From a virus: a DNA stretch of 36,365 bases. Of the stretch, positions 1-36,365 are shown in pieces. Both the position numbers and the translations under genes were made by a program. The DNA is taken from IMG/VR virus record IMGVR_UViG_3300025291_000012, positions 1 through 36,365 of that record. One strand, given 5' to 3'. The notes under the pieces are model-generated. The model saw only the letters and a list, made by a program, of their open reading frames with translations. It searched no databases and had not been told where the DNA came from. The first letter of the stretch is position 1, and each line of letters begins with the position of its first letter.

Positions 1-127
1 ACGGGCATTCGCGCCGAGGGCGACACGATCTATCTGTATGACGTGATCGGTGATTGGGGTGTGTCGGCCGATGCCTTCGCAAAGTCGCTGGCGGCCATGA
101 CTGTGGAGGTGGTGCATCTGCGGATCA
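1..127. repeat. Terminal overlap copy 1 (identical to 36239-36365)
   Basis: Base-by-base comparison of the window ends shows 127/127 identity. Confidence 0.95.
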
Positions 128-654
128 ACTCGCCTGGTGGTGACGTGATGGCGGGCCGCGCCATGGCTACCGCGATCGCGCAGTACAAGGGCAAGGTGAT
201 CGCGCACATCGACGGCCTGTGCGCGAGCGCGGCCACCTATGTGGCCCTCGCTGCGAGCGAGGTGGAGATCAGTGAAGGCGCGTTCTTTATGATCCATAAC
301 GCCTGGTCGTTCGCTATCGGCAACAAGGCCGACATGAAGGAAATGGCCGCGCTGCTGGAAAAGATCGATGCCACGATCGTCGCCGACTATCGCCGCAAGA
401 CCGGCAAGGACGAAAAGCAGATCGTGACATGGATGGAGGCGGAAACCTGGTTCACCGCCGAGGAGGCCAAAGAGCACGGATTCGTCGATCGCATCGTGCC
501 GGCCGCCAAAACGAGCAAGGATTCGAAGCCGTGGAACCTCGCTGCGTATGAGAACGCCCCGGCCGCGCTGACCGCGCCGCCGGCTAATGAGCCCGATTTC
601 GCCGAGATCGCCGCCAGTAATGAGCGGCGCCTTCGGTTGCTCGAAGCCGCGTAA
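1..654 (+). CDS. Head maturation protease, ClpP/S14-like (5-prime part lies at 36182-36238 across the circular junction)
   Basis: Frame 1 is open from base 1. Motifs seen are INSPGGDV, GLCASAATYVAL and FMIHNAW. The gene sits between portal and major capsid. Confidence 0.85.
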   Translation, partial: TGIRAEGDTIYLYDVIGDWGVSADAFAKSLAAMTVEVVHLRINSPGGDVMAGRAMATAIAQYKGKVIAHIDGLCASAATYVALAASEVEISEGAFFMIHNAWSFAIGNKADMKEMAALLEKIDATIVADYRRKTGKDEKQIVTWMEAETWFTAEEAKEHGFVDRIVPAAKTSKDSKPWNLAAYENAPAALTAPPANEPDFAEIAASNERRLRLLEAA

Positions 655-674
655 CGCCTCGCGCGTCGCGTACC

Positions 675-708
675 GCCCGCCCCGGGTAACTGGGGCGGGC
701 TTTTTTTT
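675..708 (+). terminator. Rho-independent terminator or attenuator after the protease gene
   Basis: 9-bp GC stem gcccgcccc (675-683) pairs with ggggcgggc (692-700), followed by T8 (701-708). Confidence 0.6.
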
Positions 709-729
709 GTCTACACCTCTGGAGAACAG

Positions 730-1968
730 ATGACGATCCAAGCACTGCGCGAGAAAAAGACGGCTCTGGCCCGTGACGCTCGCAACATGCTCGCCAACAA
801 GGGCGACGCCAAGTGGTCCGACGACGACCAAAAGAAGTACAACGATCTGCTGGAAAAGATCGACGCGATCAACGCCGAGATCGAGAATCACCAGCGCCTG
901 CTCGACATCGAGGCGGAAAACGCCTTCAACGAGATCACCGGGCAAGAGCCGGGGCGCGGCGCGGCTGCTCCTCCGGCGGCGGCCGTGGTCGATCCGCAGG
1001 CCGCCAAGGCCCGCGACCTGTTTAACACCTGGCTGCGCAACGGTCCCCAGGCGCTGACGCCGGATGACTGGCAGACGATCCGCAACACGATGTCGACGAC
1101 GACGCCGGCAGAAGGCGGCTACACCGTGCAGACCGATGTCGCCACGCGATTCATCGACGCCATGGCAGCTTTCGGTGGCATGCGCGACGTGGCCGAGTCG
1201 ATCCGCACGGCGCAGGGCAATCCGCTGTCGTTCCCCACCACGGACGGCACCACGGAGGAGGGCGAGATCGTTCCGGAAAACACGCAGGCCGGCAGTGCCG
1301 ACATCGCGTTCGGTACGCGCCCCCTCAACGTGTTCAAGTTCGGCTCCAAGATCATCACGGTGCCGATCGAGCTGCTGCAGGACAGCACGCTCAATGTCGA
1401 GTCGCTGGTGTTCGGCCGTCTGACTACCCGCATTTCCCGCGCCGGCAACCGCAAATTCACGGTCGGCACCGGCGTCGGCGAGCCGACGGGCATGATCACC
1501 GCCGCGACCGTCGGCAAGGTCGGCGCAGTCGGCAGCACCGCGACGGTGGGTTACGACGACCTGGTTGACCTGCAGGAATCGGTCGACGAAGCCTACCAGT
1601 CCGGTGCGCGCTGGATGTTTGCGCAGAGCACCCGCAAGGTGGTGCGCAAGCTCAAGGATGGCAACGGCCGGCCGATCTGGACGCCTGGCTACGAAGGCGG
1701 CATCACCAAGGGCGCACCCGACGAGCTGCTCGGCAAGCCGGTGACGCTCAACAGCCACGTGCCGGCGATGGCCGCAAACGCCAAGTCGATCGCCTACGGC
1801 CAGATGGACAAGTACGCGATCCGCGATGCGCTGGAGGTGACGCTGTTCCGCTTCTACGACTCGGCGTATGCGTCCAAGGGCCAGGTCGGTTTCCTCGCGT
1901 GGGCACGCAGCGGCGGCAACCTGATGGATCTGCTGGCCGTCAAGACCTACCAGAACTCGGCGACCTGA
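730..1968 (+). CDS. Major capsid protein, HK97 family
   Basis: 412 aa with SD ggag upstream. It has an N-terminal delta-like coiled region, then the capsid body, and follows the protease. Confidence 0.9.
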   Translation: MTIQALREKKTALARDARNMLANKGDAKWSDDDQKKYNDLLEKIDAINAEIENHQRLLDIEAENAFNEITGQEPGRGAAAPPAAAVVDPQAAKARDLFNTWLRNGPQALTPDDWQTIRNTMSTTTPAEGGYTVQTDVATRFIDAMAAFGGMRDVAESIRTAQGNPLSFPTTDGTTEEGEIVPENTQAGSADIAFGTRPLNVFKFGSKIITVPIELLQDSTLNVESLVFGRLTTRISRAGNRKFTVGTGVGEPTGMITAATVGKVGAVGSTATVGYDDLVDLQESVDEAYQSGARWMFAQSTRKVVRKLKDGNGRPIWTPGYEGGITKGAPDELLGKPVTLNSHVPAMAANAKSIAYGQMDKYAIRDALEVTLFRFYDSAYASKGQVGFLAWARSGGNLMDLLAVKTYQNSAT

Positions 1969-1984
1969 TCACCTGACGCCGTTC

Positions 1985-2008
1985 CGGCCAGTTCGCGAGG
2001 GCTGGCCG
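1985..2008 (+). terminator. Weak hairpin after the capsid gene (possible attenuator)
   Basis: cggccag (1985-1991) pairs with ctggccg (2002-2008), followed by a T-rich ttcttcccttcattt. Confidence 0.3.
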
Positions 2009-2036
2009 TTCTTCCCTTCATTTCCCAGGAGTCAAC

Positions 2037-2270
2037 ATGGAACAAACGAACGACAACGGCGGCGCCGATCAGGATCTCGCGGGCACCAAGCCGGCGGGCA
2101 AGGCCGAGACGACCGTCAAGGTGCGCGTGCTGGTGGACTGCGAGCACGGCAAGCCCAACGATGTGGTGTCGCTCCCGAAGTCTGTCGCCACAGCGGCTGA
2201 AAAGGCCGGCGCCGTCGACACCAGCAAGGAAGCGGTGGCCTACGCCGAGTCGATCGCCGCGCAGGAGTAA
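2037..2270 (+). CDS. Small head-module protein, unknown function
   Basis: 77 aa with SD aggag and GC3-rich codons. It lies between the capsid and connector genes. Confidence 0.6.
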   Translation: MEQTNDNGGADQDLAGTKPAGKAETTVKVRVLVDCEHGKPNDVVSLPKSVATAAEKAGAVDTSKEAVAYAESIAAQE

Positions 2271-2273
2271 TCC

Positions 2274-2828
2274 ATGCGCATCGAGACCGTCACCGCGCCG
2301 GTGGGCGAGCCGATCGACCTTGACCGCGCGAAGTTCCAGGCGCGCATTGACGACGCCGACGACGACGAAACCGCGTACCTGCAGGGCACGATCATCCCGG
2401 CCGTGCGCCGGGCGACCGAGCGCTACCTGCGCCGGCCGCTGCGTGCCGGCCAGTACAAGGCGGTGCTGGAGGATGGCGAGCAGTGCAGCACGCTGATCCT
2501 GCGCGGATACGGCCCGGCGGTGGTTACGTCGGTCACGTACCTCGACGGTGCCGGAGTGCGGCAGACGGTCTCGCTGATGGCGTACGGCACGCAAGAGGTG
2601 CCCGAGGGCATGCTGGTCCGTCCGGTCACGGCCTGGCCGGCTGGCACCGCCTTCGAAATTGCGTTCGATGCTGGCTATGTCGACGTGCCCGAGGACATCG
2701 AGCTAGCCATGCTGTTGCTGGCGGCCGAGTTCTACGCCAAGCGCGAGGTGTCGGCGGTCTTTGCCGACAACCAGTGCAAGGCGTACGACTGGCTGCTGGA
2801 CGATCACCGTTGCGGGGTGGGGCTATGA
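2274..2828 (+). CDS. Head-tail connector protein (gp6-like)
   Basis: 184 aa with SD aggag and the syntenic position after the capsid gene. Confidence 0.7.
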   Translation: MRIETVTAPVGEPIDLDRAKFQARIDDADDDETAYLQGTIIPAVRRATERYLRRPLRAGQYKAVLEDGEQCSTLILRGYGPAVVTSVTYLDGAGVRQTVSLMAYGTQEVPEGMLVRPVTAWPAGTAFEIAFDAGYVDVPEDIELAMLLLAAEFYAKREVSAVFADNQCKAYDWLLDDHRCGVGL

Positions 2829-3184
2829 GCGGCGAGCCGACACGTTCCCTGATCGAGCCGGGCGCTGGTGAGCTAAACCGCCGCGTCACCATCCGTCGCC
2901 GGCTGGATCTGCCCGCGGCGGATCTGGGGCTTGATGAGACTTTCCCCGAGACGCGCAAGCGTTGGGCCAAGATCACGCCGGCCGGCGCAGCCACCTATGC
3001 AGGCAGCGCGCAGATCGACGACCTGGTCACGCACCGGATCATCGTGCGCTATCTCGACGGCATCACGAATGCCCACGAGGTGGTGCATGGTGCGCGGATC
3101 TACCGCGTCAAGCGCGTCACCGACATGAACGGCGGGCATCGCTTCACCATGCTCGACGTGGAGGAGCTGCAGCATGGCCAGTAA
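2825..3184 (+). CDS. Head closure / head-tail adaptor protein
   Basis: The ATG at 2825 overlaps the upstream stop as ATGA. 119 aa. The upstream part of the tracked ORF 2483-3184 overlaps the connector gene. Confidence 0.7.
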   Translation: MSGEPTRSLIEPGAGELNRRVTIRRRLDLPAADLGLDETFPETRKRWAKITPAGAATYAGSAQIDDLVTHRIIVRYLDGITNAHEVVHGARIYRVKRVTDMNGGHRFTMLDVEELQHGQ

Positions 3185-3650
3185 GCCAGGCGTGTACATG
3201 CACATCGACGGCTTTGACGGTTTCGACCGCTCGGTCGATTTCGACAAGCGCGAGATCCGCAAGGCAATGCGTCGCGCCGGCGCACTGGTGACCAAGGCTT
3301 CCCGAAAGAAGGTGTCGCGCAAGGGCGGCTCGAAGGCTGGCGAGTATCCCGGCAAGCGCCTCGGCAATCTGGCTAAGTCGATTCGCGCCAAGGTCAGCCG
3401 GTCGGGCTTCATGGTGCGAATCGAGCCCAAGACCGGCAGCGGTGTTCCGGCCAGCGCCCCCTACTTTGCCTATCTGTTCTATGGGGTGAAGCGAGGCGCA
3501 GTCCGGCGCAAAGACCACCAGGCGCAGCCGAGTGGCCCGTATCGCATCGAGCCGCGCGCCAACTACATGACCGACGCCCTCGAGGAGGAGGCGCCGGCCG
3601 TGCAAAACCTGCTCAGTGCCGCGCTCGCCGCCGGCTTGCGGATCCGATAG
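3174..3650 (+). CDS. HK97 gp10-like tail-completion / neck protein
   Basis: 158 aa with a basic N-terminal half, in the syntenic position. Confidence 0.65.
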   Translation: MASKPGVYMHIDGFDGFDRSVDFDKREIRKAMRRAGALVTKASRKKVSRKGGSKAGEYPGKRLGNLAKSIRAKVSRSGFMVRIEPKTGSGVPASAPYFAYLFYGVKRGAVRRKDHQAQPSGPYRIEPRANYMTDALEEEAPAVQNLLSAALAAGLRIR

Positions 3651-3691: not shown

Positions 3692-4279
3692 ATGAAGCTA
3701 TCCCCTGTGGTCACGCAGCTGCGCCAGTACGCGCCGACGTTTGGCGGCCGTGTCGGCGGCGGCATCGAGTTCGAGATGGTGCGCGACAGCGCGCTGCTGC
3801 CGATGCCGGCGGCCTACGTCGTTATGACGGCCGACGACCCCGGCGAAAACACGCAGCAGAACAGCATCCGGCAACCGATCTTCGACGAGTTCGACGTGGT
3901 CGTGGCGCTGAAAACCGGCGACGAACGCGGCCAGTCGGTGGCGGATCCGCTGCACGACATTCGTGCCGAGCTGTTGCGCGCACTGGTCGGCTGGAAGCCG
4001 ATGCCCGATTACGAGCGGGTCACGTATGAGGGTGGGCAGTTGCTGCTTATCGATCGTGGCCGCGTGCTGTACCGCTTCACGTTCCGCTGCGAGTGGACGC
4101 TCGGCGGCGGCGCGGCGCCGGAAACCTTCGAGGAGCTGGAGTTGGCCGGCCTCCCGGCGCTTGCCGGCGTCGACATCAATCTGGATGCCATCGACCCGAT
4201 GGCCGATCCCAACCTGCAGAAGCCCGGCCCCGATGGCCGGATCGAAACCGTGCTCCGCGTGGAGCTTGATCAAGGATGA
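3692..4279 (+). CDS. Tail terminator/neck-type protein (Mu gp37-like position)
   Basis: 195 aa, first gene of the tail module. No clear SD. Confidence 0.5.
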   Translation: MKLSPVVTQLRQYAPTFGGRVGGGIEFEMVRDSALLPMPAAYVVMTADDPGENTQQNSIRQPIFDEFDVVVALKTGDERGQSVADPLHDIRAELLRALVGWKPMPDYERVTYEGGQLLLIDRGRVLYRFTFRCEWTLGGGAAPETFEELELAGLPALAGVDINLDAIDPMADPNLQKPGPDGRIETVLRVELDQG

Positions 4280-4530
4280 ACATGAGTACAGACCGCAAAA
4301 CGGTGCGCGTGGTGCCTGCTGTGGGCCGCGTGGTGCCGGATCCGGAGCGTGGCGACACGCTCCCCAGCGAAGGCCGCGACGTGGTGCGATCGCCGTATTG
4401 GGCGCGCCGCATCAAGGAACAGGACGTGACCGAGCACGAAGTACCGGCAGTCACGGAAACCGCAACCGAAGGTGACTCGCAGGCCGGTATGGCTGCGACG
4501 ACCACAAAGACCGCCAAGGGAGCCAAGTAA
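4276..4530 (+). CDS. DUF2635-type small protein preceding the sheath gene
   Basis: 84 aa. Its start overlaps the upstream stop as ATGA, and it occupies the conserved position before Mu-like sheath genes. Confidence 0.65.
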   Translation: MNMSTDRKTVRVVPAVGRVVPDPERGDTLPSEGRDVVRSPYWARRIKEQDVTEHEVPAVTETATEGDSQAGMAATTTKTAKGAK

Positions 4531-6032
4531 TGTCGGTGAGCTTCAATAACATTCCGAACGACGTTCGGGTGCCGCTGTTCTATGGCGAGATCGACAATTC
4601 CATGGCGAGCAGCGGCGCGGCGGCGGCTCTGCGACGCCTGATCATCGCGCAGATGAACGACGACGCCACCGGCGCGGCCGGCGTGCTGGCGATTGCCAGC
4701 CGCCAAAGCGATGTCGACGCGATCGCTGGTGATGGCTCGATGCTGTCGGCTATGTATCGGAAATTCCGGGTCGGCGATCCGCTGGGGCAAATCTGGGTGC
4801 TGCCGATCAAACTGGCGACGGGCACTGCAGCCAGCGGCAAGCTGACCTTTACCGGTGCCGCGACCGAGGCGGGGCTGCTCAATGCCTACATCGCTGGGCG
4901 ACGCCTGCGTGTGACGGTGGCCAACGGTATGACCGCGGCGGCGGCGGCCACGGCACTCGCCAACGTGGTCAACGCGGCAGTCAACATGCCCGTCAAGGCG
5001 GTAGCTGTCGCGGGCGAGGTGACGCTGACTGCCAAGTGGAAGGGTCTGACCGGGAATGACATCCGGCTGGAGATGAACCGGGCAGGCCTGGCGAACGGCG
5101 AGCGTACGCCGGCGGGCCTGACTGTCGCTGTGACGGCCATGGCTGGCGGCGTGGGCAGCCCGGACATGGACGATGTGCTGGCGGCCGTAGGCGACGAAGA
5201 ATTCGAGTTCATCTGCCAGCCGTACACCGACACGGCCTCGCTCGATGCCTGCCGCGATTGGATGGGTGACATCTCCGGCCGCTGGGCATGGTCGTCGCAG
5301 ATCTATGGGCACGTCTATACGGCGATGCGCGGATCGCTGGGCTCTCTCGTTGCCGCCGGCGTCGTGCGCAACGATCAGCACGTCACGATCGAGGGTTTCG
5401 AAACAAACGTCATGGCGCCGGTGTGGGAGCACGCTGCGGCGTTCACTGCCCGCACAGCGGTGTTTATCTCGGCAGATGTGGCCCGCCCCACGCAGACCGG
5501 TGAGCTGGTCGGCATCGACGCGGCGCCATCGGGCGAGCGCTTTACGCTTCAGGAGCGCCAGGCGCTGCTCTCGAACGGCATCGCCACAACCACGTCGGGC
5601 GACGGCGTGGTGCGCATCGAGCGCGGCATTACGACGTACCAGCGCAACGCCTACGGCCAGCCCGATGACTCGTATCTGGACAGCGAGACGATGCACATTA
5701 CGGCGCGCGTCATGCGCCGCCTGAAAAGCGTCATCACGACCAAGTACGGGCGCCACAAGCTGGCCGACGACGGCACGCGCTTCGGTGACGGCCAGTCGAT
5801 CGTGACGCCTTCGACGATCCGCGCCGAGCTGGTCGCCGAGTATCGCGCCATGGAGCTGGAGGGCATCGTGGAAAACGCCGACCTGTTCGAGCAGTACCTG
5901 ATCGTGGAGCGGGATGCGAACAACCCGAATCGCGTGAACGTGCTGTTCCCCCCGGACTACATCAACCAGCTGCGGATCTTCGCGCTGCAGAACCAGTTCC
6001 GCCTGCAGTACCCGCAGCAAGCGGCGGCGTAA
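4530..6032 (+). CDS. Contractile tail sheath protein
   Basis: 500 aa, with TAATG start/stop overlap, followed by tube and chaperone genes. Confidence 0.9.
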   Translation: MSVSFNNIPNDVRVPLFYGEIDNSMASSGAAAALRRLIIAQMNDDATGAAGVLAIASRQSDVDAIAGDGSMLSAMYRKFRVGDPLGQIWVLPIKLATGTAASGKLTFTGAATEAGLLNAYIAGRRLRVTVANGMTAAAAATALANVVNAAVNMPVKAVAVAGEVTLTAKWKGLTGNDIRLEMNRAGLANGERTPAGLTVAVTAMAGGVGSPDMDDVLAAVGDEEFEFICQPYTDTASLDACRDWMGDISGRWAWSSQIYGHVYTAMRGSLGSLVAAGVVRNDQHVTIEGFETNVMAPVWEHAAAFTARTAVFISADVARPTQTGELVGIDAAPSGERFTLQERQALLSNGIATTTSGDGVVRIERGITTYQRNAYGQPDDSYLDSETMHITARVMRRLKSVITTKYGRHKLADDGTRFGDGQSIVTPSTIRAELVAEYRAMELEGIVENADLFEQYLIVERDANNPNRVNVLFPPDYINQLRIFALQNQFRLQYPQQAAA

Positions 6033-6052
6033 GTCCTCCCGTTCCATCCCTT

Positions 6053-6077
6053 TGCGGCCCGCCATCGTGCGGGCCGC
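6053..6077 (+). terminator. GC hairpin after the sheath gene (attenuator-like, poor T tract)
   Basis: gcggcccg (6053-6060) pairs with cgggccgc (6070-6077). Confidence 0.35.
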
Positions 6078-6098
6078 TTCGCATTCTAGGAGACCGAC

Positions 6099-6446
6099 AT
6101 GGGTCAAAAAGTCGCCGGCACCGTCTACATCAAGGCGGACGGCTTTGCATTCGACGTGCAGGGCGCCTTCGAGGCGCCGCTGATGAAGTACAAGCGCGAG
6201 ACGATCCGTCCGGGCTACTTCAAGGAGGAAGATCTGCCGGCCTACATCAAGGCGGATCTGACCTTCACCAAGAATTTCCCGATCAAGAAGCTGCAGACGG
6301 CCATCAACATGGTCATCACGGCTGAAACCAAGGGCGGGCAGATCTACGTTCTGCAGGGTGCCTACGTGATCGGTGAGCCCGCCGTGTCCGGTGACGACGG
6401 CAAGGTGTCGATCGAGTTCAACGGTGACGACGGTAACTGGCAATGA
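6099..6446 (+). CDS. Tail tube protein
   Basis: 115 aa with SD taggaga, located directly after the sheath gene. Confidence 0.85.
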   Translation: MGQKVAGTVYIKADGFAFDVQGAFEAPLMKYKRETIRPGYFKEEDLPAYIKADLTFTKNFPIKKLQTAINMVITAETKGGQIYVLQGAYVIGEPAVSGDDGKVSIEFNGDDGNWQ

Positions 6447-6733
6447 AGACCTTTCCGCTTGCAAAACCGATTCAGGCGCACGGCGAGGAAGTTACCGAGC
6501 TGAAGCTGCGCGAGCCCACTGGCGAAGACGTGGAGGACTGCAAAGGCCTGCCGTACTTTCTGGAGGACGGCGAAACCATCCTGATCAACACGAAGACCGC
6601 GATGAAGTATGTGTCGCGCTGCGCCGGGATCCCGATGGGCTCGGTGCGGCAGATCCTGCCTGGCGATCTCAACAATCTGTTCTGGTGGGTCGCTGGTTTT
6701 TTCTTGAATCAGGGTGCCAAGAGGCCGAGCTGA
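6443..6733 (+). CDS. Tail assembly chaperone (G-like, zero-frame product)
   Basis: 96 aa, located between the tube and tape measure genes. Confidence 0.8.
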   Translation: MKTFPLAKPIQAHGEEVTELKLREPTGEDVEDCKGLPYFLEDGETILINTKTAMKYVSRCAGIPMGSVRQILPGDLNNLFWWVAGFFLNQGAKRPS

Positions 6734-6870
6734 TCGTCAACCTGGCGTATGACCTCGCGGAGTTCTGGGGCATGGATCCCGAGGTCATGCTGCAGCGGCC
6801 CATTCCGCGGCTGATGAAGTATTGGCACCACGCCGATCGCATCAACCGGGCCAGACAACCGGAATCCTAG
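6443..6870 (+). CDS. Tail assembly chaperone, -1 frameshift fusion product (GT-like)
   Basis: The -1 frame is open from the slippery site to the TAG at 6868-6870, immediately before the tape measure ATG at 6872. Confidence 0.65.
6697..6703 (+). promoter_or_regulatory. Slippery heptamer T_TTT_TTC for programmed -1 frameshifting
   Basis: The zero-frame codons ggt ttt ttc give an X_XXY_YYZ pattern in the correct phase. Confidence 0.65.
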
Positions 6871-6871
6871 A

Positions 6872-8806
6872 ATGGCTGACAAGTTTCAACTCAAGGCGCT
6901 GATCACGGGTGTCGATCAGCTGTCGCCGGCTCTTGCAGGCATCCGCAAGAATATCGCCGGCTTCCGGAAGAGCCTGAAATCGGACGGGCTGGGCGATCTC
7001 TCGTTCAAGGATGTGCTGGCCGGCGGGGCGCTTGCTGCGCCGGTCATCGCGGCGACCAAGTCGGCGATCGACTTTGAGAGCGCCATGGCGGATGTGCGGA
7101 AGGTGGTCGATTTCGACACGCCTGACCAGTTCAAGGCCATGGGGCAGGACATCATGGACATGTCCAAGCGCCTGCCCATGGCGGCCAAGGACATCGCCGC
7201 GATCGTCGCCGCCGGCGGCCAGGCCGGTTTCGATAAGGCCGAGCTGCCGAAATTCGCCGAGGACGCGGTCAAGATGGGCGTCGCGTTTGATCAGACCGCC
7301 GAGCAGGCCGGCGAAATGATGGCGACCTGGCGCACCTCGTTCAAGCTGGGGCAGGACGCCGTCGTGCAGTTGGCCGACCAGATCAACTATCTCGGCAATA
7401 ACGGCCCAGCCAAGGCTGCCAAGATTTCCGAGATCGTGACGCGTATCGGTCCGCTGGGCGAGGTGGCGGGCTTCGCGGCCAGCCAGATCGCGGCTATGGG
7501 CGCGACGCTGGCGGGCATGGGGGTGCAGGAGGAGATTGCGGCAACCGGCATCAAAAATATGATGCTGACGCTCACCTCCGGCGCATCGGCCACCAAAGAG
7601 CAGCAGCAGACATTCAAGGCGCTGCGGCTCGATGCCAAAAAGTTGGCCGTGGACATGCAAAAGGATGCGCAGGGCACGATGCTGCGGGTGCTGACCGCGA
7701 TCGGCAAGGTGGACAAGTCGAAACAGGCCTCTGTGCTGGATGGGCTGTTCGGCAAGGAATCCATCGGGGCTATTGCGCCTCTGCTCACGAACATGGATCT
7801 GCTGCAGAAGAATTTCCAGCGCGTTGGCGAGGCGTCGCAATACGCCGGCTCGATGCAAAAGGAATACGAGTCGCGCGCCGCCACCACGGCGAACAACATG
7901 CAGTTGATGCAGAACCGTGTGACGGCGCTGGCGATCTCGGTGGGCGACATCCTGCTGCCGCCGCTCAATTCGTTCCTGGCGTACGTCGGACCGCTGGTCG
8001 ATGGGATGTCGGCTTTCGCGAGTGCGAACCCGGCTGTGATTCAGGGTGTGCTCGGTGCGGCGGCAGGCCTGACAGTGCTCAAGCTGGGCGCGGTTGCGGC
8101 TGCTGCTGGCATCAAGCTGCTGATGGGCGTCACCAGCCTGACGCCGATCGGCCTGGCGGTGCGCGGCATCGCACTGGTGGCGGGGCTGCTGATCGCCAAC
8201 TGGTCGACCGTGGGTCCGTTCTTCGCAGATCTGTGGGCCGGTATTCAAAGCCGGGCCGAAGTCGCATGGGGCTGGATCAAATCGGCGCTGAGCTTCACGC
8301 CGCTGGGGCCAATCCTCGCCAACTGGGAGCCAATCACCGAGTTCTTCGGGGCGCTGTGGGATGCGGTGGTCGCGGTGACCGGGCTGGCGTGGGACTGGAT
8401 TAAAGACGCGTTCTTCAGCTTCCATCCGCTCGGCATCATCATCGCCAATTGGGAGCCCATCGTCGCGTGGTTTAGCGGCCTGTGGGACCGCGTCAAGCCG
8501 TTCATCGAGCCGCTGGTCAATGCCGGGGCATGGATCGGGCAAAAGGTCGGCGCCGTATTCAATGGCGGCGGGGGTGAGGGCGCGGCGGCGGCTGGCGGGG
8601 CGATCCGATCGGGGACCGATTCCGTGCGCAACTGGACGGCTTCCCTGTCCTCACAGACGGCGCAGTCGCAGCAGCTGCGCGGCGACATGACGGTACGTTT
8701 CGAGAACGCGCCAGCCGGCACGCGCGTCGATCCAGGCAACACCAACCAGCCCGGCCTCACCATGACGCCGCGCGTCGGATACCGCTCGCTCTCGGGGGCG
8801 GATTAA
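6872..8806 (+). CDS. Tail tape measure protein
   Basis: 644 aa, Ala/Gly-rich and helical, with a repeated W-x-W-I-K motif near the C-terminal hydrophobic segment. Confidence 0.9.
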   Translation: MADKFQLKALITGVDQLSPALAGIRKNIAGFRKSLKSDGLGDLSFKDVLAGGALAAPVIAATKSAIDFESAMADVRKVVDFDTPDQFKAMGQDIMDMSKRLPMAAKDIAAIVAAGGQAGFDKAELPKFAEDAVKMGVAFDQTAEQAGEMMATWRTSFKLGQDAVVQLADQINYLGNNGPAKAAKISEIVTRIGPLGEVAGFAASQIAAMGATLAGMGVQEEIAATGIKNMMLTLTSGASATKEQQQTFKALRLDAKKLAVDMQKDAQGTMLRVLTAIGKVDKSKQASVLDGLFGKESIGAIAPLLTNMDLLQKNFQRVGEASQYAGSMQKEYESRAATTANNMQLMQNRVTALAISVGDILLPPLNSFLAYVGPLVDGMSAFASANPAVIQGVLGAAAGLTVLKLGAVAAAAGIKLLMGVTSLTPIGLAVRGIALVAGLLIANWSTVGPFFADLWAGIQSRAEVAWGWIKSALSFTPLGPILANWEPITEFFGALWDAVVAVTGLAWDWIKDAFFSFHPLGIIIANWEPIVAWFSGLWDRVKPFIEPLVNAGAWIGQKVGAVFNGGGGEGAAAAGGAIRSGTDSVRNWTASLSSQTAQSQQLRGDMTVRFENAPAGTRVDPGNTNQPGLTMTPRVGYRSLSGAD

Positions 8807-8819: not shown

Positions 8820-10061
8820 ATGGCAAGCTGGCGAGACAAGCTACGCCCGGCCTCTTTTCGTGGTGTGCCATTCGAGGTCGAAGGGGACAAGGTTCCCATC
8901 GGCCGCCGGGTGGTCACGCACGAATACCCGGGAAAGAATGTCCCCTATGTCGAGGACATGGGCCGCGTCACGCGTGAATACAAGATCACGGCCTTCGTCA
9001 TCGGCTCGGACTACATGGACAAGCGCGACAAGCTGCTCACCGCGGTGGAAACCGAGGGCAAGGGCGAGCTGGTGCATCCGTGGCTCGGCACGCTCAACGT
9101 CAAGGCCGGTGTCGGGGAAATGTCCCACTCGTGGAAAGACGGCGGCATGGTCACCTTCGATCTGACTTTTACCGAGTCGGGCGACCAGGCCACGCCCACG
9201 GCCAAGGTGAACACCGGCAAGGCTGCGTCCCTCGCCGGTGCTTCGCTGGCGGATGGGGCGCTGACGCGGTTCGAGCAGGCCATGGCGACGGTCAATTCCG
9301 CGCAGGTGACTGTTTCACAGCTGTCCAAGGCGGCGGGCGCCGCAATGGACGCCCTGCAGCAGTACGCGGCGCCGATCGCTGCGGCCATCGGGACGGCGCA
9401 GAACTTCGCCAACCTGGTGCTCAACGCGCCGGCCGAGCTGACTGGCTTGATCCGTGGCGTGCTGGCGAGCGTGCCGGGGGCGTTCCACATGTTCGATGGC
9501 TTCGGCTCCGGCCTCTCCAGCCTCTTCGGCAAGTCGTCGGCGGTGTCCACGCTGGCGACCGTGGTGCCGCCACAGGGCGAAGCTGCGGCGGCTGCGCACG
9601 ATGCCGTGGTGAAGCTCACGCAGGATCTGCTGATCGCCGACACCGTCAAGGAAGTCGGCGAGATGCCGGTGGCGACCGTTCCCGCGCCGCTGCCGAGCGC
9701 ACCGTCTGTCGATGTGCAGGTGCTGCAGCCCATCGAGCGACCGGAGATCCCCGTCGCAGACGATGTGCTGGAGGTGCGGGAGGAGATCGCGGAAACGATG
9801 TGGGAGCAAGCGCAGACCGCGCCGCAGTGGCATTACCAGCTGCTCACGGATGCGCGGATTCAGGTGTCGCGGCACCTGGCGACCGTGGCCCGGCCTGCAG
9901 CGCGCCTCACGACCGTGACACCTGGTCAGCCGGTGCCGGCGCTGGTGCTCGCCTATGCCCGTTATGGCGACGCCACGCGGGCCGACGAGATCGTGGTGCG
10001 CAATCGTGCCTCGCATCCCGGCTTCCTGCCTGCGGCGCCTTTACAGGTGGCGATGAAATGA
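8820..10061 (+). CDS. DNA circularization-type protein (Mu gp43-like)
   Basis: 413 aa with the N-terminus WRDKLRPASFRGVPFEV, in the syntenic position after the tape measure gene. Confidence 0.7.
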   Translation: MASWRDKLRPASFRGVPFEVEGDKVPIGRRVVTHEYPGKNVPYVEDMGRVTREYKITAFVIGSDYMDKRDKLLTAVETEGKGELVHPWLGTLNVKAGVGEMSHSWKDGGMVTFDLTFTESGDQATPTAKVNTGKAASLAGASLADGALTRFEQAMATVNSAQVTVSQLSKAAGAAMDALQQYAAPIAAAIGTAQNFANLVLNAPAELTGLIRGVLASVPGAFHMFDGFGSGLSSLFGKSSAVSTLATVVPPQGEAAAAAHDAVVKLTQDLLIADTVKEVGEMPVATVPAPLPSAPSVDVQVLQPIERPEIPVADDVLEVREEIAETMWEQAQTAPQWHYQLLTDARIQVSRHLATVARPAARLTTVTPGQPVPALVLAYARYGDATRADEIVVRNRASHPGFLPAAPLQVAMK

Positions 10062-11179
10062 GTGACGCGAGCGAGGTAACACTAACCGTCAACGGGATGG
10101 ACTATGGCGGCTGGAAAGACATCCGGATCACGGCGGGCATCGAGCGCCAGGCGCGGGACTTCTCGGTAGGTATTACGTGGAAGTGGCCGGGCGGCGGCGA
10201 ACGTCCGCGCCAGATCCGTCAAGGCGATCGCTGCGAGCTGCGCATTGGCAACGAGCTGGTGCTGACGGGCTGGGTCGACGCCACGCCGGTCCGCTGGAAC
10301 GCGCGCGAGATCTCCACGGCCGTCTCCGGCCGATCGCTGACCGGGGATCTGGTCGACTGCGGCGCCGACAACTCGCCGGGGCAATGGCGCAACCAGAGCG
10401 TGCGGCGGATCGTGCAGGCGCTGGCATCGCCCTACGGGATCCCGGTGGTTAGTGAGCTGCAGGACAACACCACGCTGGCCGATCACACGATCCAGCCAGG
10501 CGAATCGGCATTCCAGTCGATCGACCGGCTGCTGCGCCTGTCTCGATTGCTTTCCACTGACGACGCGCAGGGGCGGCTCGTGATCGCGAGGCCGGGCAGC
10601 GCTGGCCGGGCAGTCGACCGGCTGGAGCGAGGCGTCAACCTGATCAGTGGTGATGCGCCGCTGGACTTCACGGGCGTGTTTTCCGAGTACGTCAGCAAGG
10701 GCCAGCGCGCCGGATCGGATGAGGTCTTCGGCCTGGCGGCCAGCGAGGTCGAGGCGCGCGCCACCGACACGCGGATCCAGCGCAAGCGCGTCCTCGTGCT
10801 GCACGAGCGCGGGCAGACCACGCCAGAGCTTGCGCGTAAGCGGGTGGCATGGGAGCGCGAGAACCGGATCAGCAAGGCGCTGCAAACGACCTATGAGGTA
10901 CAGGGGTGGCGGCAGTCAAACGGCGCGCTGTGGCGGCACAACCAGATCGTGCGCGTGGTGGATCCGCTGGTCGGATTCGATCGGGATCTGCTCATTACGG
11001 AAATCGAATACAGCCTGAGCAACCAGGCCGGCACCAAGGCAAAGATCACCGTGGCGCCGCCCGATGGTTTCGAGGCCGAGCCGCCGGATCCGACCAAGCG
11101 CCGCAAGCGCGACAAGACGGGCAAGGGCAAGGACGATTTCGAGTACCTGCTGCCCGCCGATTGGGAAAAGAAAAAATGA
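10058..11179 (+). CDS. Baseplate hub protein (Mu gpP / late control D-like)
   Basis: The ATG at 10058 overlaps the upstream TGA. 373 aa. The tracked ORF's extension back to 9080 overlaps the previous gene. Confidence 0.75.
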   Translation: MSDASEVTLTVNGMDYGGWKDIRITAGIERQARDFSVGITWKWPGGGERPRQIRQGDRCELRIGNELVLTGWVDATPVRWNAREISTAVSGRSLTGDLVDCGADNSPGQWRNQSVRRIVQALASPYGIPVVSELQDNTTLADHTIQPGESAFQSIDRLLRLSRLLSTDDAQGRLVIARPGSAGRAVDRLERGVNLISGDAPLDFTGVFSEYVSKGQRAGSDEVFGLAASEVEARATDTRIQRKRVLVLHERGQTTPELARKRVAWERENRISKALQTTYEVQGWRQSNGALWRHNQIVRVVDPLVGFDRDLLITEIEYSLSNQAGTKAKITVAPPDGFEAEPPDPTKRRKRDKTGKGKDDFEYLLPADWEKKK

Positions 11180-11691
11180 ATCAGTCTGTGACAGGAATGA
11201 TTGCGCGAGGCGTGGTGGTGCTGGCGAACGCCAGTCGAAAGCTGCAGGCGCTGCAGCTGCGGCTGACCGCGCGCGAGGTCAAGGACAACGTCGAGCACTT
11301 CGAGCCGTACGGCTTCACCAGCAATCCGAAAGACGGCGCCGAGGCGCTGGTGGCGTTTCTGGGCGGCGATCGTTCGCACGGCGTGGCCTTTATGGTCACC
11401 GACCGTCGCGTGCGGTTGCAGGGGCTGCAGCCGGGCGAGGTGGCGATTTTCACGCATGAGGGTCAGGCGCTGGTGTTGAAAAACGGAAAGATCGCCGAGC
11501 TGACAACCGGCACCTTCCGCGTCAATGCCGAGGATCTGATTGAACTGAATGCGCCGAGGGTCACTGCTCCGAAGGACGTCGAGGCCGGCGGCAAGCTCAA
11601 GGTAACCGGGGACGTGGAGATCAACGGCAAGCCGGTGCTGCATCACCGGCACCCGGAAACCGGAAACATCACCGGGGAGATGCAGCAATGA
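11176..11691 (+). CDS. Baseplate assembly protein V / spike
   Basis: ATGA overlap at the start. 171 aa with the motif EHFEPYGFTS. Confidence 0.8.
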   Translation: MNQSVTGMIARGVVVLANASRKLQALQLRLTAREVKDNVEHFEPYGFTSNPKDGAEALVAFLGGDRSHGVAFMVTDRRVRLQGLQPGEVAIFTHEGQALVLKNGKIAELTTGTFRVNAEDLIELNAPRVTAPKDVEAGGKLKVTGDVEINGKPVLHHRHPETGNITGEMQQ

Positions 11692-33238: not shown

Positions 33239-34928
33239 CCGCGCAACCGAGTTTGCGCAGGCGGTAGCCGCCGGCAAGATCATGGCCGGGCCGCACGTTC
33301 GCGATGCCTGTGCGCGTCACCTGCGCGACCTGGTCGAAGGGCCGGCGCGAGGGCTGACGTGGGATCTGGACGCGGCAAATCGCGCCATCGGCTTCTTCGA
33401 GGACGTGCTATGCCTGAACGGCGGCGACTATGAGGGCAAGCCGTTCGACGTGCAGCCGTGGCAGGCCTTCATCATCGGCAGTCTGTTCGGCTGGAAAGGC
33501 CCGGACGGCTATCGGCGCTTCCGCGTCGCGTATGTCGAGACGGCGAAGGGCAGCGGCAAGTCACCGCTGGCCGCCGGCATCGGGCTTTACGGCCTGACCG
33601 CTGATGGTGAGGCGCGGGCCGAGATCTACGCCGCGGCGACCAAGAAAGACCAGGCGCAGATCCTGTTTCGCGACGCCGTTGCGATGGTCGATCAGTCGCC
33701 GCTGCTGCGCCAGCGCATCGAGAAGTCCGGCGGCGCCATGCGCGAATTCAACCTCGCGTATCTGCCGACCTCGTCGTTTTTCCGGCCGGTCAGTGCCGAC
33801 GACGGGCAGTCGGGGCCGCGTCCACACATTGCGCTGCTGGACGAGATCCACGAGCACAAGGGGCCGCACGTCGTCGAGATGATGCGCGCGGGCACGAAAA
33901 GCCGGCGGCAGGCGCTGATCTTCATGATCACGAACAGCGGCACCGACAAGCGCACGGTGTGCTGGGACTACCACGACTACGGCGCCAAGGTGAGCGCCGG
34001 CACGCTGGTCGACGACAGCTTTTTCGCGTTCATCTGTGCGCTCGATGAGGGCGACGATCCGTTCAAGGACGAAAGTTGCTGGGCCAAAGCGAACCCGAGC
34101 CTTGAGTACGGTATCCCGGGCATCAAGTACTTGCGCGAGCAAGTCACGCAGGCGCGCGGCATGCCGTCGAAAGAGGCGACCGTGCGTCGTCTGTGCTTCT
34201 GCCAGTGGACTGAGGCGTCAGCGCCGTGGATCTCCGGAGAGATCTGGTTCGCGTGCCAGGCGACGCCACCTATCGGCATCGAGGCACTGTACGGGCGCTC
34301 TGGCGTTGCGGCACTCGACATTTCGAGCACGCAGGACTTGACGGCCCTCGTGGTGGCGCTGGACCCGACAGAGGATGACCCGGTGACTCGGCTGATCCCG
34401 TATTTCTGGCTGCCGGGTGACGGACTGCACGACAAGGCCGACAAGGACCGCGTCCCTTACCTTGCCTGGCGTGACGCCGGCTATCTGGAGGCGGTGCCAG
34501 GCCGGGCGATCAACCGTCTTTTCGTATTCCGCCGCCTGGTGGAGATCTGCACGGCATTCGACATCCGGGAGATCGCCGCCGACCGTTGGCGGGTCGAGGA
34601 CTACGAGGCGATGGTCAATCAGGAGGGTCTGAGCCTGCCGCCGTTCTTCAAGTTCGGGCAGGGCTTCAAGGACATGGCGCCCGCCGTGGATGAATTCGAG
34701 CGCATGTTGCTCGACCAGCTGCTGTCGCATGACGGAAATCCGGTGCTGACATGGAACGCGGCCAACGCCGTGACCGAGGAGGATCCGGCGGGCAATCGGA
34801 AGTTGTCCAAGCAGCGCGCCACCGGTCGCATCGACGGGATCGTGGCGGGTGTCATGGCGATCGGCCGGCTGCAGGGCGCCACTGAGTCGCAGGTTATCGA
34901 GAGCGGTTACGCCTCATTGGACGATTGA
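33204..34928 (+). CDS. Terminase large subunit
   Basis: ATG at 33204. 574 aa with Walker A AKGSGKS and the Walker B-like LLDEIHEH. Confidence 0.9.
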   Translation: MAKRQSPQSTSDRATEFAQAVAAGKIMAGPHVRDACARHLRDLVEGPARGLTWDLDAANRAIGFFEDVLCLNGGDYEGKPFDVQPWQAFIIGSLFGWKGPDGYRRFRVAYVETAKGSGKSPLAAGIGLYGLTADGEARAEIYAAATKKDQAQILFRDAVAMVDQSPLLRQRIEKSGGAMREFNLAYLPTSSFFRPVSADDGQSGPRPHIALLDEIHEHKGPHVVEMMRAGTKSRRQALIFMITNSGTDKRTVCWDYHDYGAKVSAGTLVDDSFFAFICALDEGDDPFKDESCWAKANPSLEYGIPGIKYLREQVTQARGMPSKEATVRRLCFCQWTEASAPWISGEIWFACQATPPIGIEALYGRSGVAALDISSTQDLTALVVALDPTEDDPVTRLIPYFWLPGDGLHDKADKDRVPYLAWRDAGYLEAVPGRAINRLFVFRRLVEICTAFDIREIAADRWRVEDYEAMVNQEGLSLPPFFKFGQGFKDMAPAVDEFERMLLDQLLSHDGNPVLTWNAANAVTEEDPAGNRKLSKQRATGRIDGIVAGVMAIGRLQGATESQVIESGYASLDD

Positions 34929-34929
34929 T

Positions 34930-36195
34930 ATGGGCATTCTTGACCTACTGCGCGGAGGCTCTACGGAGGCCGCGCCGCCGCCGGCCGCGCCGGTTGACCG
35001 CATCGAGCCGTCGTTCCAGGACGCGGTCACCATCGTGCAGGGCGGTGAGGCTCACGCGATGGAGTTCTTCGGCACGCCATCGGCTGCAGGTAAGCCGGTC
35101 ACCGAAGACACTGCAGCCCGTGTCGCTATGGTGTTCGCCTGCACCAGGCTGATCGCTGGTGCGATCGCCTCGCTACCGATGCACTTTTACGAGCGGATCG
35201 AGAACGGGCGGCAGCGTTGGGATACGCCGCTGTGGTGGATCTTCAACGAGCAGCCCACCCCGCGCTTTTCAGCGGCGGTGTTTTGGGAGTACGTCACAAA
35301 GTCGATCCTGTTCCACGGCGACGGCTTCGCGACATTGCGACGCAACGCGGCCAACCAGGTGGTGCAGGTCGTGCCGCATCACCCGCTGGATGTGGTGGTC
35401 GAGCGGCGAGGCGATCGCCTGGTGTACTTCGTTCAGGATCTCGGGCAGCGCCGTGGATACGAGCAGGACGATGTGCTGCACTTCCCCGGGTTCGGCTTTG
35501 ATGGCCGGCGCAGCCTTTCGGTGATCCAGTACGCCGCCAAGCAGCAGATCGGCTTCAACCTGACCACGGACGAGTTTCGTGGCAAGTTCATGAGTCAAGG
35601 GCTGCATACGCCGTTCTTCTTCAAGACGGACGGAAAGATGACGCCGGAAAAGCGCGAGATGCTGCGCGGCGAGTATGACCGCAAGTATCGCGGCTACAAC
35701 AACACCGGCACGCCGATGGTTCTCACCGAGGGTGTCGACCTCAAGTCCATCCAGATGTCGATGGCCGATGCGCAGCTGATCGAGCAGCTCAAGATGTCCA
35801 ATGCGGACATCTGCCGGGCCTTCGGCGTGCCGCCTTTCATGGTGGGCGATCCGGAGGGCAGCACGAGTTGGGGTAGCGGCATCGAGCAGATGAGCATCGG
35901 ATTCGTGATGTACACGCTGCAGCCCTACATCAACCGCAACGAGCAGGAGATCAATCGCAAGCTCTTCCGCACGTCGAAGTACTTCTGCGAATGCAACGTC
36001 GAGGCGCTGCGACGCGGCGACCTGAAAAGCCGCGGCGAGTACTACAAAACCTCGCTGGGCGGCACGCAGGGCGCCGGCTGGATGACGCAGAACGAAGTGC
36101 GTCGAGAGAACAACCTGCCGCCGGTCGAGGGCGGTGACAAGCTCTTTGCCCCCGTGGCAAAGCCAACCGGAGAAAAGCCAAATGAAGGCACTTAA
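34930..36195 (+). CDS. Portal protein, HK97 family
   Basis: ATG at 34930. 421 aa, located between TerL and the protease. Confidence 0.9.
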   Translation: MGILDLLRGGSTEAAPPPAAPVDRIEPSFQDAVTIVQGGEAHAMEFFGTPSAAGKPVTEDTAARVAMVFACTRLIAGAIASLPMHFYERIENGRQRWDTPLWWIFNEQPTPRFSAAVFWEYVTKSILFHGDGFATLRRNAANQVVQVVPHHPLDVVVERRGDRLVYFVQDLGQRRGYEQDDVLHFPGFGFDGRRSLSVIQYAAKQQIGFNLTTDEFRGKFMSQGLHTPFFFKTDGKMTPEKREMLRGEYDRKYRGYNNTGTPMVLTEGVDLKSIQMSMADAQLIEQLKMSNADICRAFGVPPFMVGDPEGSTSWGSGIEQMSIGFVMYTLQPYINRNEQEINRKLFRTSKYFCECNVEALRRGDLKSRGEYYKTSLGGTQGAGWMTQNEVRRENNLPPVEGGDKLFAPVAKPTGEKPNEGT

Positions 36196-36365
36196 GAGCT
36201 GCTTGTCTGCGCTGCTGCGCAACAACGCAGAAGAGGGTACGGGCATTCGCGCCGAGGGCGACACGATCTATCTGTATGACGTGATCGGTGATTGGGGTGT
36301 GTCGGCCGATGCCTTCGCAAAGTCGCTGGCGGCCATGACTGTGGAGGTGGTGCATCTGCGGATCA
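36182..36365 (+). CDS. Head maturation protease, 5-prime part (continues at base 1 by circular permutation)
   Basis: The ATG at 36182 overlaps the portal 3-prime end. The frame is continuous with 1-654, since 36239 corresponds to base 1 on a codon boundary. The full protein is 236 aa. Confidence 0.8.
   Translation, partial: MKALKSCLSALLRNNAEEGTGIRAEGDTIYLYDVIGDWGVSADAFAKSLAAMTVEVVHLRI
36239..36365. repeat. Terminal overlap copy 2 (identical to 1-127)
   Basis: Same comparison. The overlap indicates circular-assembly overlap or terminal redundancy. Confidence 0.95.

Follow-up and report, generated by a model that had tools for sequence, protein, structure and literature searches.

A temperate myophage lacking a recognisable integrase that probably persists as a RepA-ParAB plasmid in a Cupriavidus-like host

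How a temperate phage without a recognisable integrase could maintain its prophage is the question raised by the IMG/VR virus record IMGVR_UViG_3300025291_000012, whose full stretch of 36,365 nucleotides is referred to here as the window. The analysis of this window reveals an element that we read, with a probability of roughly 0.8, as the complete genome of a temperate myophage, probably SOS-inducible, whose prophage is maintained in plasmid form, circular and at low copy number, in a Cupriavidus-like host of the Burkholderiaceae. Phage-plasmids are an established class, and both halves of their definition (PMC7969092) find a counterpart in the window, namely temperate tailed-phage functions (packaging, capsid, tail, lysis and lysogeny control) and plasmid replication and/or partition functions (RepA_C, ParA, ParB_N, KfrA_N and an iteron oriV); the assignment is thus supported as far as the features legible in a sequence can support it. 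An earlier sequence-only reading had described an integrase-less temperate myophage containing every module of a temperate tailed phage, with a RepA replicon of its own bearing iterons and DnaA boxes, KfrA, RepA and ParA/ParB at 18.4-23.2 kb, a repressor with an S24 domain, and window ends overlapping as expected for a circle. This description is borne out by Pfam, PHROG and NCBIfam profile searches on the ~50 called genes and by direct inspection of the origin and the ends, and both closed circular relatives and an integrase-bearing cousin agree with it. Coordinates of the features are collected in Table 1.

The plasmid functions lie in a single cassette with the gene order kfrA - repA - oriV - parB - parA. 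The reading frame of repA opens with an ATG at 20872 that is preceded by AGGAGG, and its RepA_C product has homologs in 1104 plasmid records by tblastn (~54% identity to Burkholderia, Paraburkholderia and Ralstonia plasmids), which places it in a genuine plasmid family; the same search of a phage collection returned a single 3.9-kb record. The region next to repA has the components of an iteron-controlled theta replicon, with an iteron array, DnaA boxes and an AT-rich region accompanying the RepA_C initiator. The 15-mer iteron GCCCCCACATATGCG is present in seven exact copies where 0.17 would be expected by chance, six of them direct within 21132-21292 and one inverted at 20934-20948. Five of the direct copies (at 21132, 21153, 21175, 21198 and 21220) are spaced by 21-23 bp and are thereby helically phased, and the sixth, at 21278, lies past the two DnaA boxes (cTATCCACA at 21248 and a perfect TTATCCACA at 21261); the AT-rich stretch spans ~21040-21115. 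The inverted iteron at 20934 is a candidate, and likely, autoregulatory operator of repA, and the same 5+1+1 layout is kept in the related loci L001, L004 and L006. Experiments on SGI1 have demonstrated a functional oriV made up of a RepA_C protein, GC-rich iterons and a DnaA box (PMC7433901). The KfrA-like protein, a DNA-binding coiled-coil protein of the plasmid-maintenance accessory type, adjoins RepA in IMG/VR relatives too, with 48% identity for L006; its best identity of 72% was obtained against a pooled BLAST database of L004-L006 and is therefore not assignable to one locus. About 100 bp upstream of kfrA, at 18257-18288, a perfect 14-nt inverted repeat (GCCATTGCGATAAG-N4-CTTATCGCAATGGC) adjoins a promoter-like site at 18322-18350 and could serve KfrA as an operator or act as a terminator.

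Partition is represented by a Walker-type ParA and a ParB_N-type ParB encoded in one operon, the protein pair of a ParABS system. This observation is accompanied by a 25-nt palindrome, AAAGTGTC-N9-GACACTTT, of which the window holds three copies with none expected by chance, and which brackets both repA and parAB. Its arms are kept beside parAB in L001, L006, L011 and L012, including the TrfA-type arrangement introduced below, with a spacer that varies. The three palindromes may be regarded as candidate parS sites or ParB operators, possibly doubling as terminators that insulate the cassette from the early-left operon. Inside parA, on the opposite strand at 22274-22338 (+), the only Rfam match was to c4-a1b1, the targets of the c4 antisense RNA of P1 and N15; with 23.7 bits (E 0.058) it stays below the gathering score of 46.7, and it was set aside as in all likelihood a chance match.

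The circular form of the element is indicated by the ends of the window, in which positions 1-127 are an exact match to 36239-36365, so that the unique circle amounts to 36,238 bp. The 127-bp terminal overlap is an assembler k-mer overlap marking a circular or concatemeric template, and a MEGAHIT k141 contig (ENA k141_277936) of 36,379 bp, equal to 36,238 + 141, represents an independent circularisation at the same size. The window RepA was found on four metagenomic contigs, each in the 20-50 kb class.

The comparison with related elements bears on what this cassette does. The closest annotated relative, Cupriavidus oxalaticus X32 plasmid unnamed3 (NZ_CP038638.1; IMG/VR UViG 2846725519_000001), is a circular record of 37,950 bp, annotated as a plasmid only and so far unstudied as a phage. 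It has the same gene order as the window and has tail, lysis, rep/par, early-left, immunity and early-right genes in common with it, with amino-acid identities of 84% for RepA, 87% for ParA, 65% for ParB, 75% for cI, 57% for a 352-residue early protein discussed below, 76% for the sheath and 92% for the holin; its iterons likewise follow the 5+1+1 layout, the palindrome recurs next to its parAB, and no integrase is annotated in it. It differs in its head and packaging genes, which are replaced (TerL 33%, portal 32%, an S49 protease instead of ClpP and no capsid match), in its fibres, in the absence of the acyltransferase gene, and in a KfrA that is only partly conserved. At identities of at least 80%, the RepA clade comprises 8 clusters, all on contigs of at most 45 kb and with the named hosts C. 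oxalaticus, C. necator and C. basilensis (the RepA of L004 is 86% identical to that of the window), and the next matches reach at most 57%. One member, the closed C. basilensis replicon CP163416.1 (L034; 40,625 bp), encodes RepA at 80% identity, ParAB, cI/cro/cII and a gene of the 352-residue family, and differs in having a lambda-like siphovirus tail. In the Logan contig SRR28624395_4118 (L012; 36,515 bp), a TrfA protein (PF07042) stands beside ParB/ParA in place of RepA_C (L012 1-2290).

The most informative cousin is L028 (IMG/VR UViG 2913661577_000002; 39,863 bp), a prophage-type element with homologs of the early-left genes g25886, g24807 and g23463. At its positions 12637-15142, at the element end, it encodes an SDH-type ClpP-like protease and a tyrosine integrase (PF00589 Phage_integrase, 9e-12; Arm-DNA-bind_3), and this integrase occupies the slot that parA-parB-oriV-repA-kfrA fill in the window. 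A plasmid cassette sitting in the integrase slot of a mosaic lineage is the strongest comparative argument that the cassette is a device for maintaining lysogeny. More distant relatives of the early core are borne on chromosomes in Ralstonia, Paraburkholderia and Cupriavidus genomes; a search of genome contigs with RepA alone gave no match, and the same search with an alignment of the 352-residue family gave only distant chromosome-borne relatives. Taken together, these comparisons suggest a small mosaic lineage in which a conserved immunity and early core is combined with an exchangeable lysogeny cassette (an integrase, or RepA_C or TrfA with ParAB) and exchangeable virion modules.

Several further observations concern the exchange of modules. 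Comparison of the window with L001 and L002 shows the head/packaging module (32083-36195 and 1-2828) to be swapped as a block between elements that are otherwise syntenic, with a boundary near the head-completion gene (~2.9 kb). The TerL of the window is 81% identical to that of Ralstonia phage YO103_6 (74-81% over the TerL/TerS/HNH block), and this phage was rejected as a whole-genome relative, its similarity to the window being confined to the HNH/TerS/TerL block and a small number of early genes. A 36.9-kb "plasmid" of Comamonas odontotermitis (TerL 58%) was likewise rejected as an unrelated siphophage with an integrase. In L012, g26790 (88%), g25886 (93%) and the 352-residue protein (62%) match the window, and a DNA methylase gene lies in the early-left operon. 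On other contigs of ~40 kb, a RepA_C+ParA(B) cassette with a more distant RepA_C accompanies a lambda-like siphovirus tail (L035) or a P2-like tail (L036), and L034 and L035 carry ParE-like toxin/helix-turn-helix pairs absent from the window.

On the phage side, each module is supported by Pfam or PHROG matches. The HNH/TerS/TerL packaging set is of the HK97 type, and cos packaging is presumed on account of this HK97-style, HNH-assisted set. The element does not group with Mu-like transposable phages: only the tail and baseplate are of the Mu type, and no rve or transposase match occurs in any frame; the baseplate genes match DNA_circ_N, GpP-like_1st/Gp44-like_2nd/GpP_4th, Phage_Mu_Gp45, GP46, Baseplate_J, Phage_Mu_Gp48, Gp53-like_C and Caudo_TAP. 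The endolysin is recognised by PHROG (2.9e-73) and assigned to GH19 by Pfam (Glyco_hydro_19). The cI-type repressor shows, in translation, a candidate QAG cleavage site and a GVSM...K catalytic pair, which together with its S24 domain make it presumably SOS-inducible. An operator-like palindrome, ATTAGAA(G/C)TTCTAAT, occurs at three sites in the window (0.1 expected), and the immunity switch is lambda-like, with cI/cro/cII and paired predicted operators at PL and PR.

Table 1. Positions of the modules, genes and sites in the window (strand "." for sites and regions without orientation).
Feature	Position	Strand	Support or remark
KfrA-like DNA-binding protein, coiled coil	18386-19291	+	Pfam KfrA_N 1.8e-19; plasmid-maintenance accessory
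Palindrome copy 1	19838-19862	.	just past repA stop
RepA, RepA_C-family plasmid initiator, 336 aa	19862-20872	-	PF04796, E 4.9e-27, 95.8 bits vs cut-off 26
oriV	20873-21320	.	iterons, DnaA boxes and AT-rich stretch between repA and parB (~450 bp)
Palindrome copy 2	21295-21319	.	between oriV and parB stop
Partition operon	21320-23073	-	parA + parB; genes overlap by 4 nt
parB	21320-22243	-	307 aa; Pfam ParB_N 1.6e-22
parA	22240-23073	-	277 aa; Pfam AAA_31 3.2e-44, CbiA, MipZ
Palindrome copy 3	23147-23171	.	immediately upstream of parA promoter-like site (23134-23106, minus strand)
Early-left operon, ~9 small genes	23463-27712	-	no recombinase among them
dNMP (deoxynucleoside monophosphate)-kinase-like protein	26790-27332	-	PHROG
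OL-like operator ATTAGAAGTTCTGAT + half-site	27744-27785	.	ahead of early-left operon
cI-type repressor, 269 aa, LexA-like S24 autopeptidase	28377-29186	-	Pfam Peptidase_S24 2e-19
OR-like operator pair ATCAGAAGTTCT..., ATTAGAACTTCTAAT	29231-29270	.	overlaps cro promoter-like site 29244-29272
Early-right regulators	29281-30580	+	Cro, CII, small open reading frame
Cro/YdaS-type helix-turn-helix protein	29281-29595	+	Pfam YdaS_toxin/HTH_3/P22_Cro; divergent
CII, CP76 family	29719-30249	+	Pfam Phage_CP76 3.8e-25
Small open reading frame	30236-30580	+	
Candidate lytic replication module	30580-32054	+	352-aa protein (30580-31638) and conserved 139-aa partner (31635-32054)
Packaging module	32083-36195	+	Pfam HNH, Terminase_4, TerL_ATPase, TerL_nuclease, Phage_portal; PHROG HNH
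HNH endonuclease	32083-32601	+	Pfam, PHROG
P27-type small terminase (TerS)	32696-33238	+	Pfam Terminase_4
TerL	33156-34928	+	Pfam TerL_ATPase, TerL_nuclease
Portal	34849-36195	+	Pfam Phage_portal
Head module	1-3650	+	Pfam CLP_protease, Phage_capsid, Phage_connect_1, Phage_HCP
ClpP-type prohead protease	36182 across junction to 654	+	Pfam CLP_protease 1e-25; wrap-around reading frame reconstructed
HK97-fold major capsid protein	730-1968	+	Pfam Phage_capsid 4.5e-60
Connector	2274-2828	+	Pfam Phage_connect_1
Head completion protein	~2829-3184	+	Pfam Phage_HCP
gp10-like protein	3174-3650	+	
Contractile tail module	3692-8806	+	Pfam Phage_tail_terminator, Phage_sheath_1/1C, Tail_tube, Phage_TAC_7, PhageMin_Tail; also DUF2635
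Sheath	4530-6032	+	Pfam Phage_sheath_1/1C
Tube	6099-6446	+	Pfam Tail_tube
Tape measure	6872-8806	+	Pfam PhageMin_Tail; assembly chaperone (Phage_TAC_7) listed between tube and tape measure
Mu-type baseplate and fibres	8820-15164	+	DNA_circ_N, gpP/gp44 hub, gp45, gp46, gp47, gp48, fibre, fibre assembly protein
Tail fibre	13669-14580	+	
Lysis cassette	15242-16729	+	GH19 endolysin, holin, Rz-like spanin
Holin	15877-16173	+	PHROG holin 9.8e-35, Pfam Phage_holin_3_2
Rz-like spanin	16157-16729	+	PHROG Rz 3.1e-21
Acyltransferase-3 membrane protein	16675-17796	-	373 aa; Pfam Acyl_transf_3 2.3e-25

From the established behaviour of iteron plasmids, ParABS systems and lambdoid switches, a life cycle can be proposed for this element. 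Upon infection, the presumably cos-ended DNA would circularise, and the establishment of cI would shut off PL and PR. RepA would then be made from its own promoter under autoregulation through the inverted iteron, and its binding to the five phased iterons, with host DnaA at the two DnaA boxes, would melt the AT-rich stretch and start theta replication, with copy number limited by iteron handcuffing; copies would be segregated by ParB on the three palindromes and the ParA ATPase, with KfrA assisting. The acyltransferase encoded next to the cassette would probably serve as a lysogenic-conversion moron. DNA damage would lead to RecA-stimulated autocleavage of cI and derepression of PR, whereupon the 352-residue winged-helix protein and its 139-residue partner would drive lytic-phase replication, late genes would be expressed, and HNH/TerS/TerL would package genomes, presumably at cos, into HK97-type heads with Mu-type contractile tails.

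In this cycle, the separate lytic replicon is a plausible proposal. The sequence-only reading had named a second, lambda O-like initiator, and this holds by analogy of position and architecture and fails as homology, the protein having no Pfam, PDB or significant fold match; the likeness to lambda O being such an analogy, the model of two replication modes is one that we infer. The analogy lies first in the operon, where the gene follows cII directly in the cI-repressed rightward operon, under the OR operators, with a small partner gene next to it as in lambda O/P, and second in the protein, which has two domains, a winged-helix N-domain joined through a long flexible linker to a C-terminal domain. 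An AlphaFold2 model built from the family alignment (mean predicted local distance difference test score 68.6) shows confident domains at 1-105 and 225-350, with a helical C-domain behind a disordered linker of ~120 residues. The differences from lambda O are the lack of sequence or significant fold similarity and of a clear in-gene iteron array: no Pfam match was obtained at E <= 0.01, Phage_rep_O included, no match among PDB sequences, and nothing significant in a Foldseek comparison of the model with the PDB, where the best E was >= 0.19 and the matches were generic winged-helix domains (ArsR-type regulators, ORC winged-helix domains and TubR). The PHROGs matched, 23635 and 13103, are both of unknown function.

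Given that the gene always follows cII in a cI-repressed operon, a role as lytic initiator is plausible, and we hold it to be an even bet or somewhat better. A rival account, in which RepA/oriV serves both replication modes and the 352-residue protein acts otherwise, for instance as a regulator, antirepressor or primosome adaptor, has a real though lesser chance of being correct. N15, with its single repA for both modes, offers a precedent for such an economy, and the rival account gains from the generic character of the fold matches, from the lack of homology to lambda O or to characterised initiators, and from the failure to find a convincing iteron array in or near the gene. It has more difficulty with the distribution of the family (26 clusters, those named all from Cupriavidus/Ralstonia), which keeps the replication slot after cII or the early regulators in Mu-tailed myophage, siphophage and PM2-like (P2_N capsid) backbones, RepA-less ones included, and with the winged helix, flexible linker and C-terminal domain that are typical of origin-binding initiators. 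A sub-threshold match to the NCBIfam STY4528 pathogenicity-island replication protein (E 1.4e-5; 25 bits against a cut-off of 130) and one source that names a family member "DnaT DNA-binding domain-containing protein" also speak against it.

Two observations on this family and its gene deserve mention. Homologs with 40-45% identity occur in L009 (Ralstonia pickettii chromosome) and L033 (Cupriavidus sp. SK-3), both small, corticovirus-like prophages whose capsid is of the PM2 double-jelly-roll type (Pfam P2_N/P2_C), so that the family crosses virus realms and still remains in the replication slot. Within the gene, the only repeats seen are short, three copies of AAAACCYT and two of AAAGCCGACA, and lie within an A-rich, lower-GC stretch at 30950-31060 in the part coding for the linker; over 30950-31070, three tandem AAAACCYT units are followed by a C-run, CCCCCCCAACCCCCCC, and this stretch could be a DNA-unwinding or origin element, or it could reflect codon bias for a disordered Lys/Pro-rich linker.

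Three further explanations concern the phage-plasmid assignment itself. The element might be a plasmid with a defective or domesticated prophage, tailocin-like or cryptic, that yields no infectious virions, and this we consider unlikely. The decay of phage-plasmids to plain plasmids is documented (Pfeifer and Rocha 2024, PMC10879196), and infectivity cannot be judged from sequence; on the other side, all modules from packaging through lysis to the immunity switch are uninterrupted, several relatives at 50-90% amino-acid identity keep the full gene order, as would be expected under selection for phage function, and 36.2 kb is a typical size for such a capsid.

Less probable still is an integrating phage whose integration function escaped recognition, be it a novel early-left recombinase or the host XerCD, the latter being what CTXphi uses, with RepA/ParAB acting transiently or in the lytic phase only. 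The ~12 genes without assignable function leave some room for it, as do cousins sharing this backbone that are integrated in chromosomes of Ralstonia and Cupriavidus. The hidden Markov model search that had been recommended along with the claim that the element lacks a tyrosine or serine recombinase, a transposase and a protelomerase was run, and the claim stands: no recombinase, DDE transposase or protelomerase family was found among the called genes with Pfam, PHROGs or NCBIfam, and 150 alternative-frame stop-to-stop open reading frames of at least ~90 amino acids gave zero Pfam matches. The reading frame at 16675-17796 (-), whose size and position would fit an integrase, was rejected as an Acyl_transf_3 membrane protein. 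Tolerant patterns revealed no dif-/cer-like Xer site in the window, no tRNA gene was found in its 36,365 nt, and there is no att candidate. What is more, the cassette is a complete and intact low-copy maintenance system whose iteron and palindrome architecture is kept in relatives, two of which were deposited as separate circular replicons, and in the integrative cousin L028 the integrase replaces the cassette and does not coexist with it. A linear plasmid prophage of the N15 type is likewise disfavoured, no protelomerase having been found in the called genes or in the 150 alternative-frame reading frames and the assembly being circular.

A chimeric joining of a small plasmid to a phage contig, for which the short-read metagenomic source and the k-mer overlap at the ends might be cited, has a negligible probability and can be excluded, the sequence being identical across both plasmid-phage junctions in independent ENA (ERZ27252039; 100% over the 21.0 kb compared) and JGI (3300005511; 100% over the 16.8 kb compared) assemblies and the gene order being the same in closed isolate replicons and IMG/VR contigs. 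These two contigs, L007 and L008, come from two separate projects and are identical to the window over 17-21 kb, which suggests that one strain or element was sampled more than once, perhaps in an isolate community of laboratory or plant-associated origin.

Certain points nevertheless weigh against the phage-plasmid assignment or parts of it. A circular assembly would be expected equally from cos or terminally redundant virion DNA or from replicative forms in a metagenome. Neither a multimer-resolution recombinase nor a dif-/cer-like Xer site was found in the window, and no toxin-antitoxin addiction module was seen there, unlike in L034 and L035 with their ParE-like genes. The palindromes, to which we assign a parS role by inference, could simply be terminators, possibly bidirectional; the evidence for a lytic replication role of the 352-residue protein consists of its position and fold class; and the host is taken to be Cupriavidus-like from the relatives of the element.

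As a phage-plasmid, the element can be placed beside several known systems. KS14, a Burkholderiaceae myophage of 32.3 kb whose plasmid prophage was shown by plasmid preparation, resembles it in host family, in being a small temperate myophage, and in having ParA with a plasmid-type initiator, and differs in its P2-type virion genes, RepB-type initiator and Gin/Cin-like serine recombinase (PMC3091744). The window, by comparison, combines an HK97 head and Mu-type tail with an iteron-bearing RepA_C replicon and ParA+ParB+KfrA, and has no recombinase. P1 maintains its unit-copy prophage through an iteron-controlled RepA and ParAB/parS and has a separate lytic replicon (oriR/parABS/oriL-repL). The same logic, an iteron RepA and ParAB with a separate repressor-controlled lytic function, is proposed for the window; the differences are that tblastn with its RepA gave no P1-like record in the phage collection, that it measures 36 kb against ~94 kb for P1 (SSU5 being ~100 kb), and that it has an S24 repressor and an HK97 head with a Mu-type tail without Cre/lox-type resolution or C1/c4 immunity. 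The combination of HK97-like head and Mu-like contractile tail is known from Shigella phage SfV and Salmonella ST64B, which carry O-antigen-modifying genes beside the lysogeny module and integrate by a tyrosine integrase; in that slot, the window has its plasmid cassette. With the RepA_C replicons of IncC/IncA, pXAC64 and SGI1 rep-oriV, the window has in common the RepA_C domain, DnaA box(es) and AT-rich flanks, and its iteron GCCCCCACATATGCG and the SGI1 consensus RKGGGGGHRATTATGCG are both GC-rich and end in ...ATGCG (PMC7433901). It differs from these in that its replicon sits in a phage with ParAB/KfrA and that its RepA is ~54% identical to the nearest ordinary plasmids.

The claim that this combination of modules falls outside the P1, N15 and SSU5 archetypes was upheld, with no nucleotide match to any phage record and a RepA that matches none of them. 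Judged by nucleotide match, RepA, size and host, the window is also outside the ten phage-plasmid types defined by tyPPing (PMC12977533), among which are P1, N15, SSU5/pHCM2, AB_1, pMT1, pCAV, pSLy3, pKpn and cp32, none with a Burkholderiaceae host; AB_1, for instance, ranges from 101 to 122 kb, against 36 kb here (PMC12977533). Cupriavidus phage-plasmids have been mentioned only as members of a loose "VP882 community" and were not characterised (Pfeifer et al. 2021, PMC7969092), and the interconversion of phage-plasmids, plasmids and integrative prophages has been described for P1-like elements (PMC10879196). Among the papers searched, none cites the C. oxalaticus record CP038638, and none describes the lineage. 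The lifestyle is therefore known and the Cupriavidus/Ralstonia lineage undescribed, the element being uncharacterised but not categorically new; nor is it unique, the RepA clade counting 8 clusters and RefSeq and IMG/VR already containing a relative.

More tentatively, and at somewhat less than even odds, we propose that this lineage is an undescribed Cupriavidus-centred type of phage-plasmid built as a cassette system, in which a conserved immunity and early core with a new, non-lambda-O initiator family, that of the 352-residue protein also present in sipho- and PM2-like prophages, would be combined with freely swapped lysogeny cassettes (tyrosine integrase, RepA_C+ParABS+KfrA or TrfA+ParAB) and head/tail modules, giving a P1-like dual replicon in 36 kb without a recombinase. 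Phage-plasmids are by now seen to be common, but their well-defined, experimentally proven types are almost all from enterobacteria, Acinetobacter or Borrelia, and the lineage would add a compact (36-41 kb) betaproteobacterial one. It offers natural "isogenic-like" variants, with integrase or plasmid cassette at one locus, RepA_C or TrfA, and myovirus or siphovirus modules, and such variants make it a convenient system for comparing episomal with integrated lysogeny and for studying recombination of replicon and virion genes. What makes it valuable is that integrase and plasmid cassette are cleanly exchanged, that RepA_C and TrfA replace one another, that the virion modules are mosaic, and that an unstudied family of 352-residue candidate initiators comes with them. 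Cupriavidus strains, C. necator among them, are biotechnological workhorses, and a small, stably partitioned, self-transmissible replicon, or its minimal rep-ori-par cassette, could serve as a vector.

Among the remaining genes, that of the acyltransferase separates the lysis genes from the plasmid cassette and lies in a region of 57% GC, compared with ~63% for the window, whose GC also dips at the rep/par region; it is a candidate moron, probably encoding an O-antigen or surface-/exopolysaccharide acylase for lysogenic conversion or superinfection exclusion. The early-left operon is common to phage-plasmid and integrative relatives. Its proteins had no Pfam, NCBIfam or PADLOC matches, and their PHROGs were of unknown function or dNMP kinase only; PADLOC on the early genes of unknown function gave nothing credible. 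One of them, the 239-residue protein at 24091-24810 (-), matches with its C-terminal ~100 residues the C-termini of many unknown-function PHROGs of 217-685 positions (E down to 4.5e-46), and this part of the protein looks like a widespread mobile domain.

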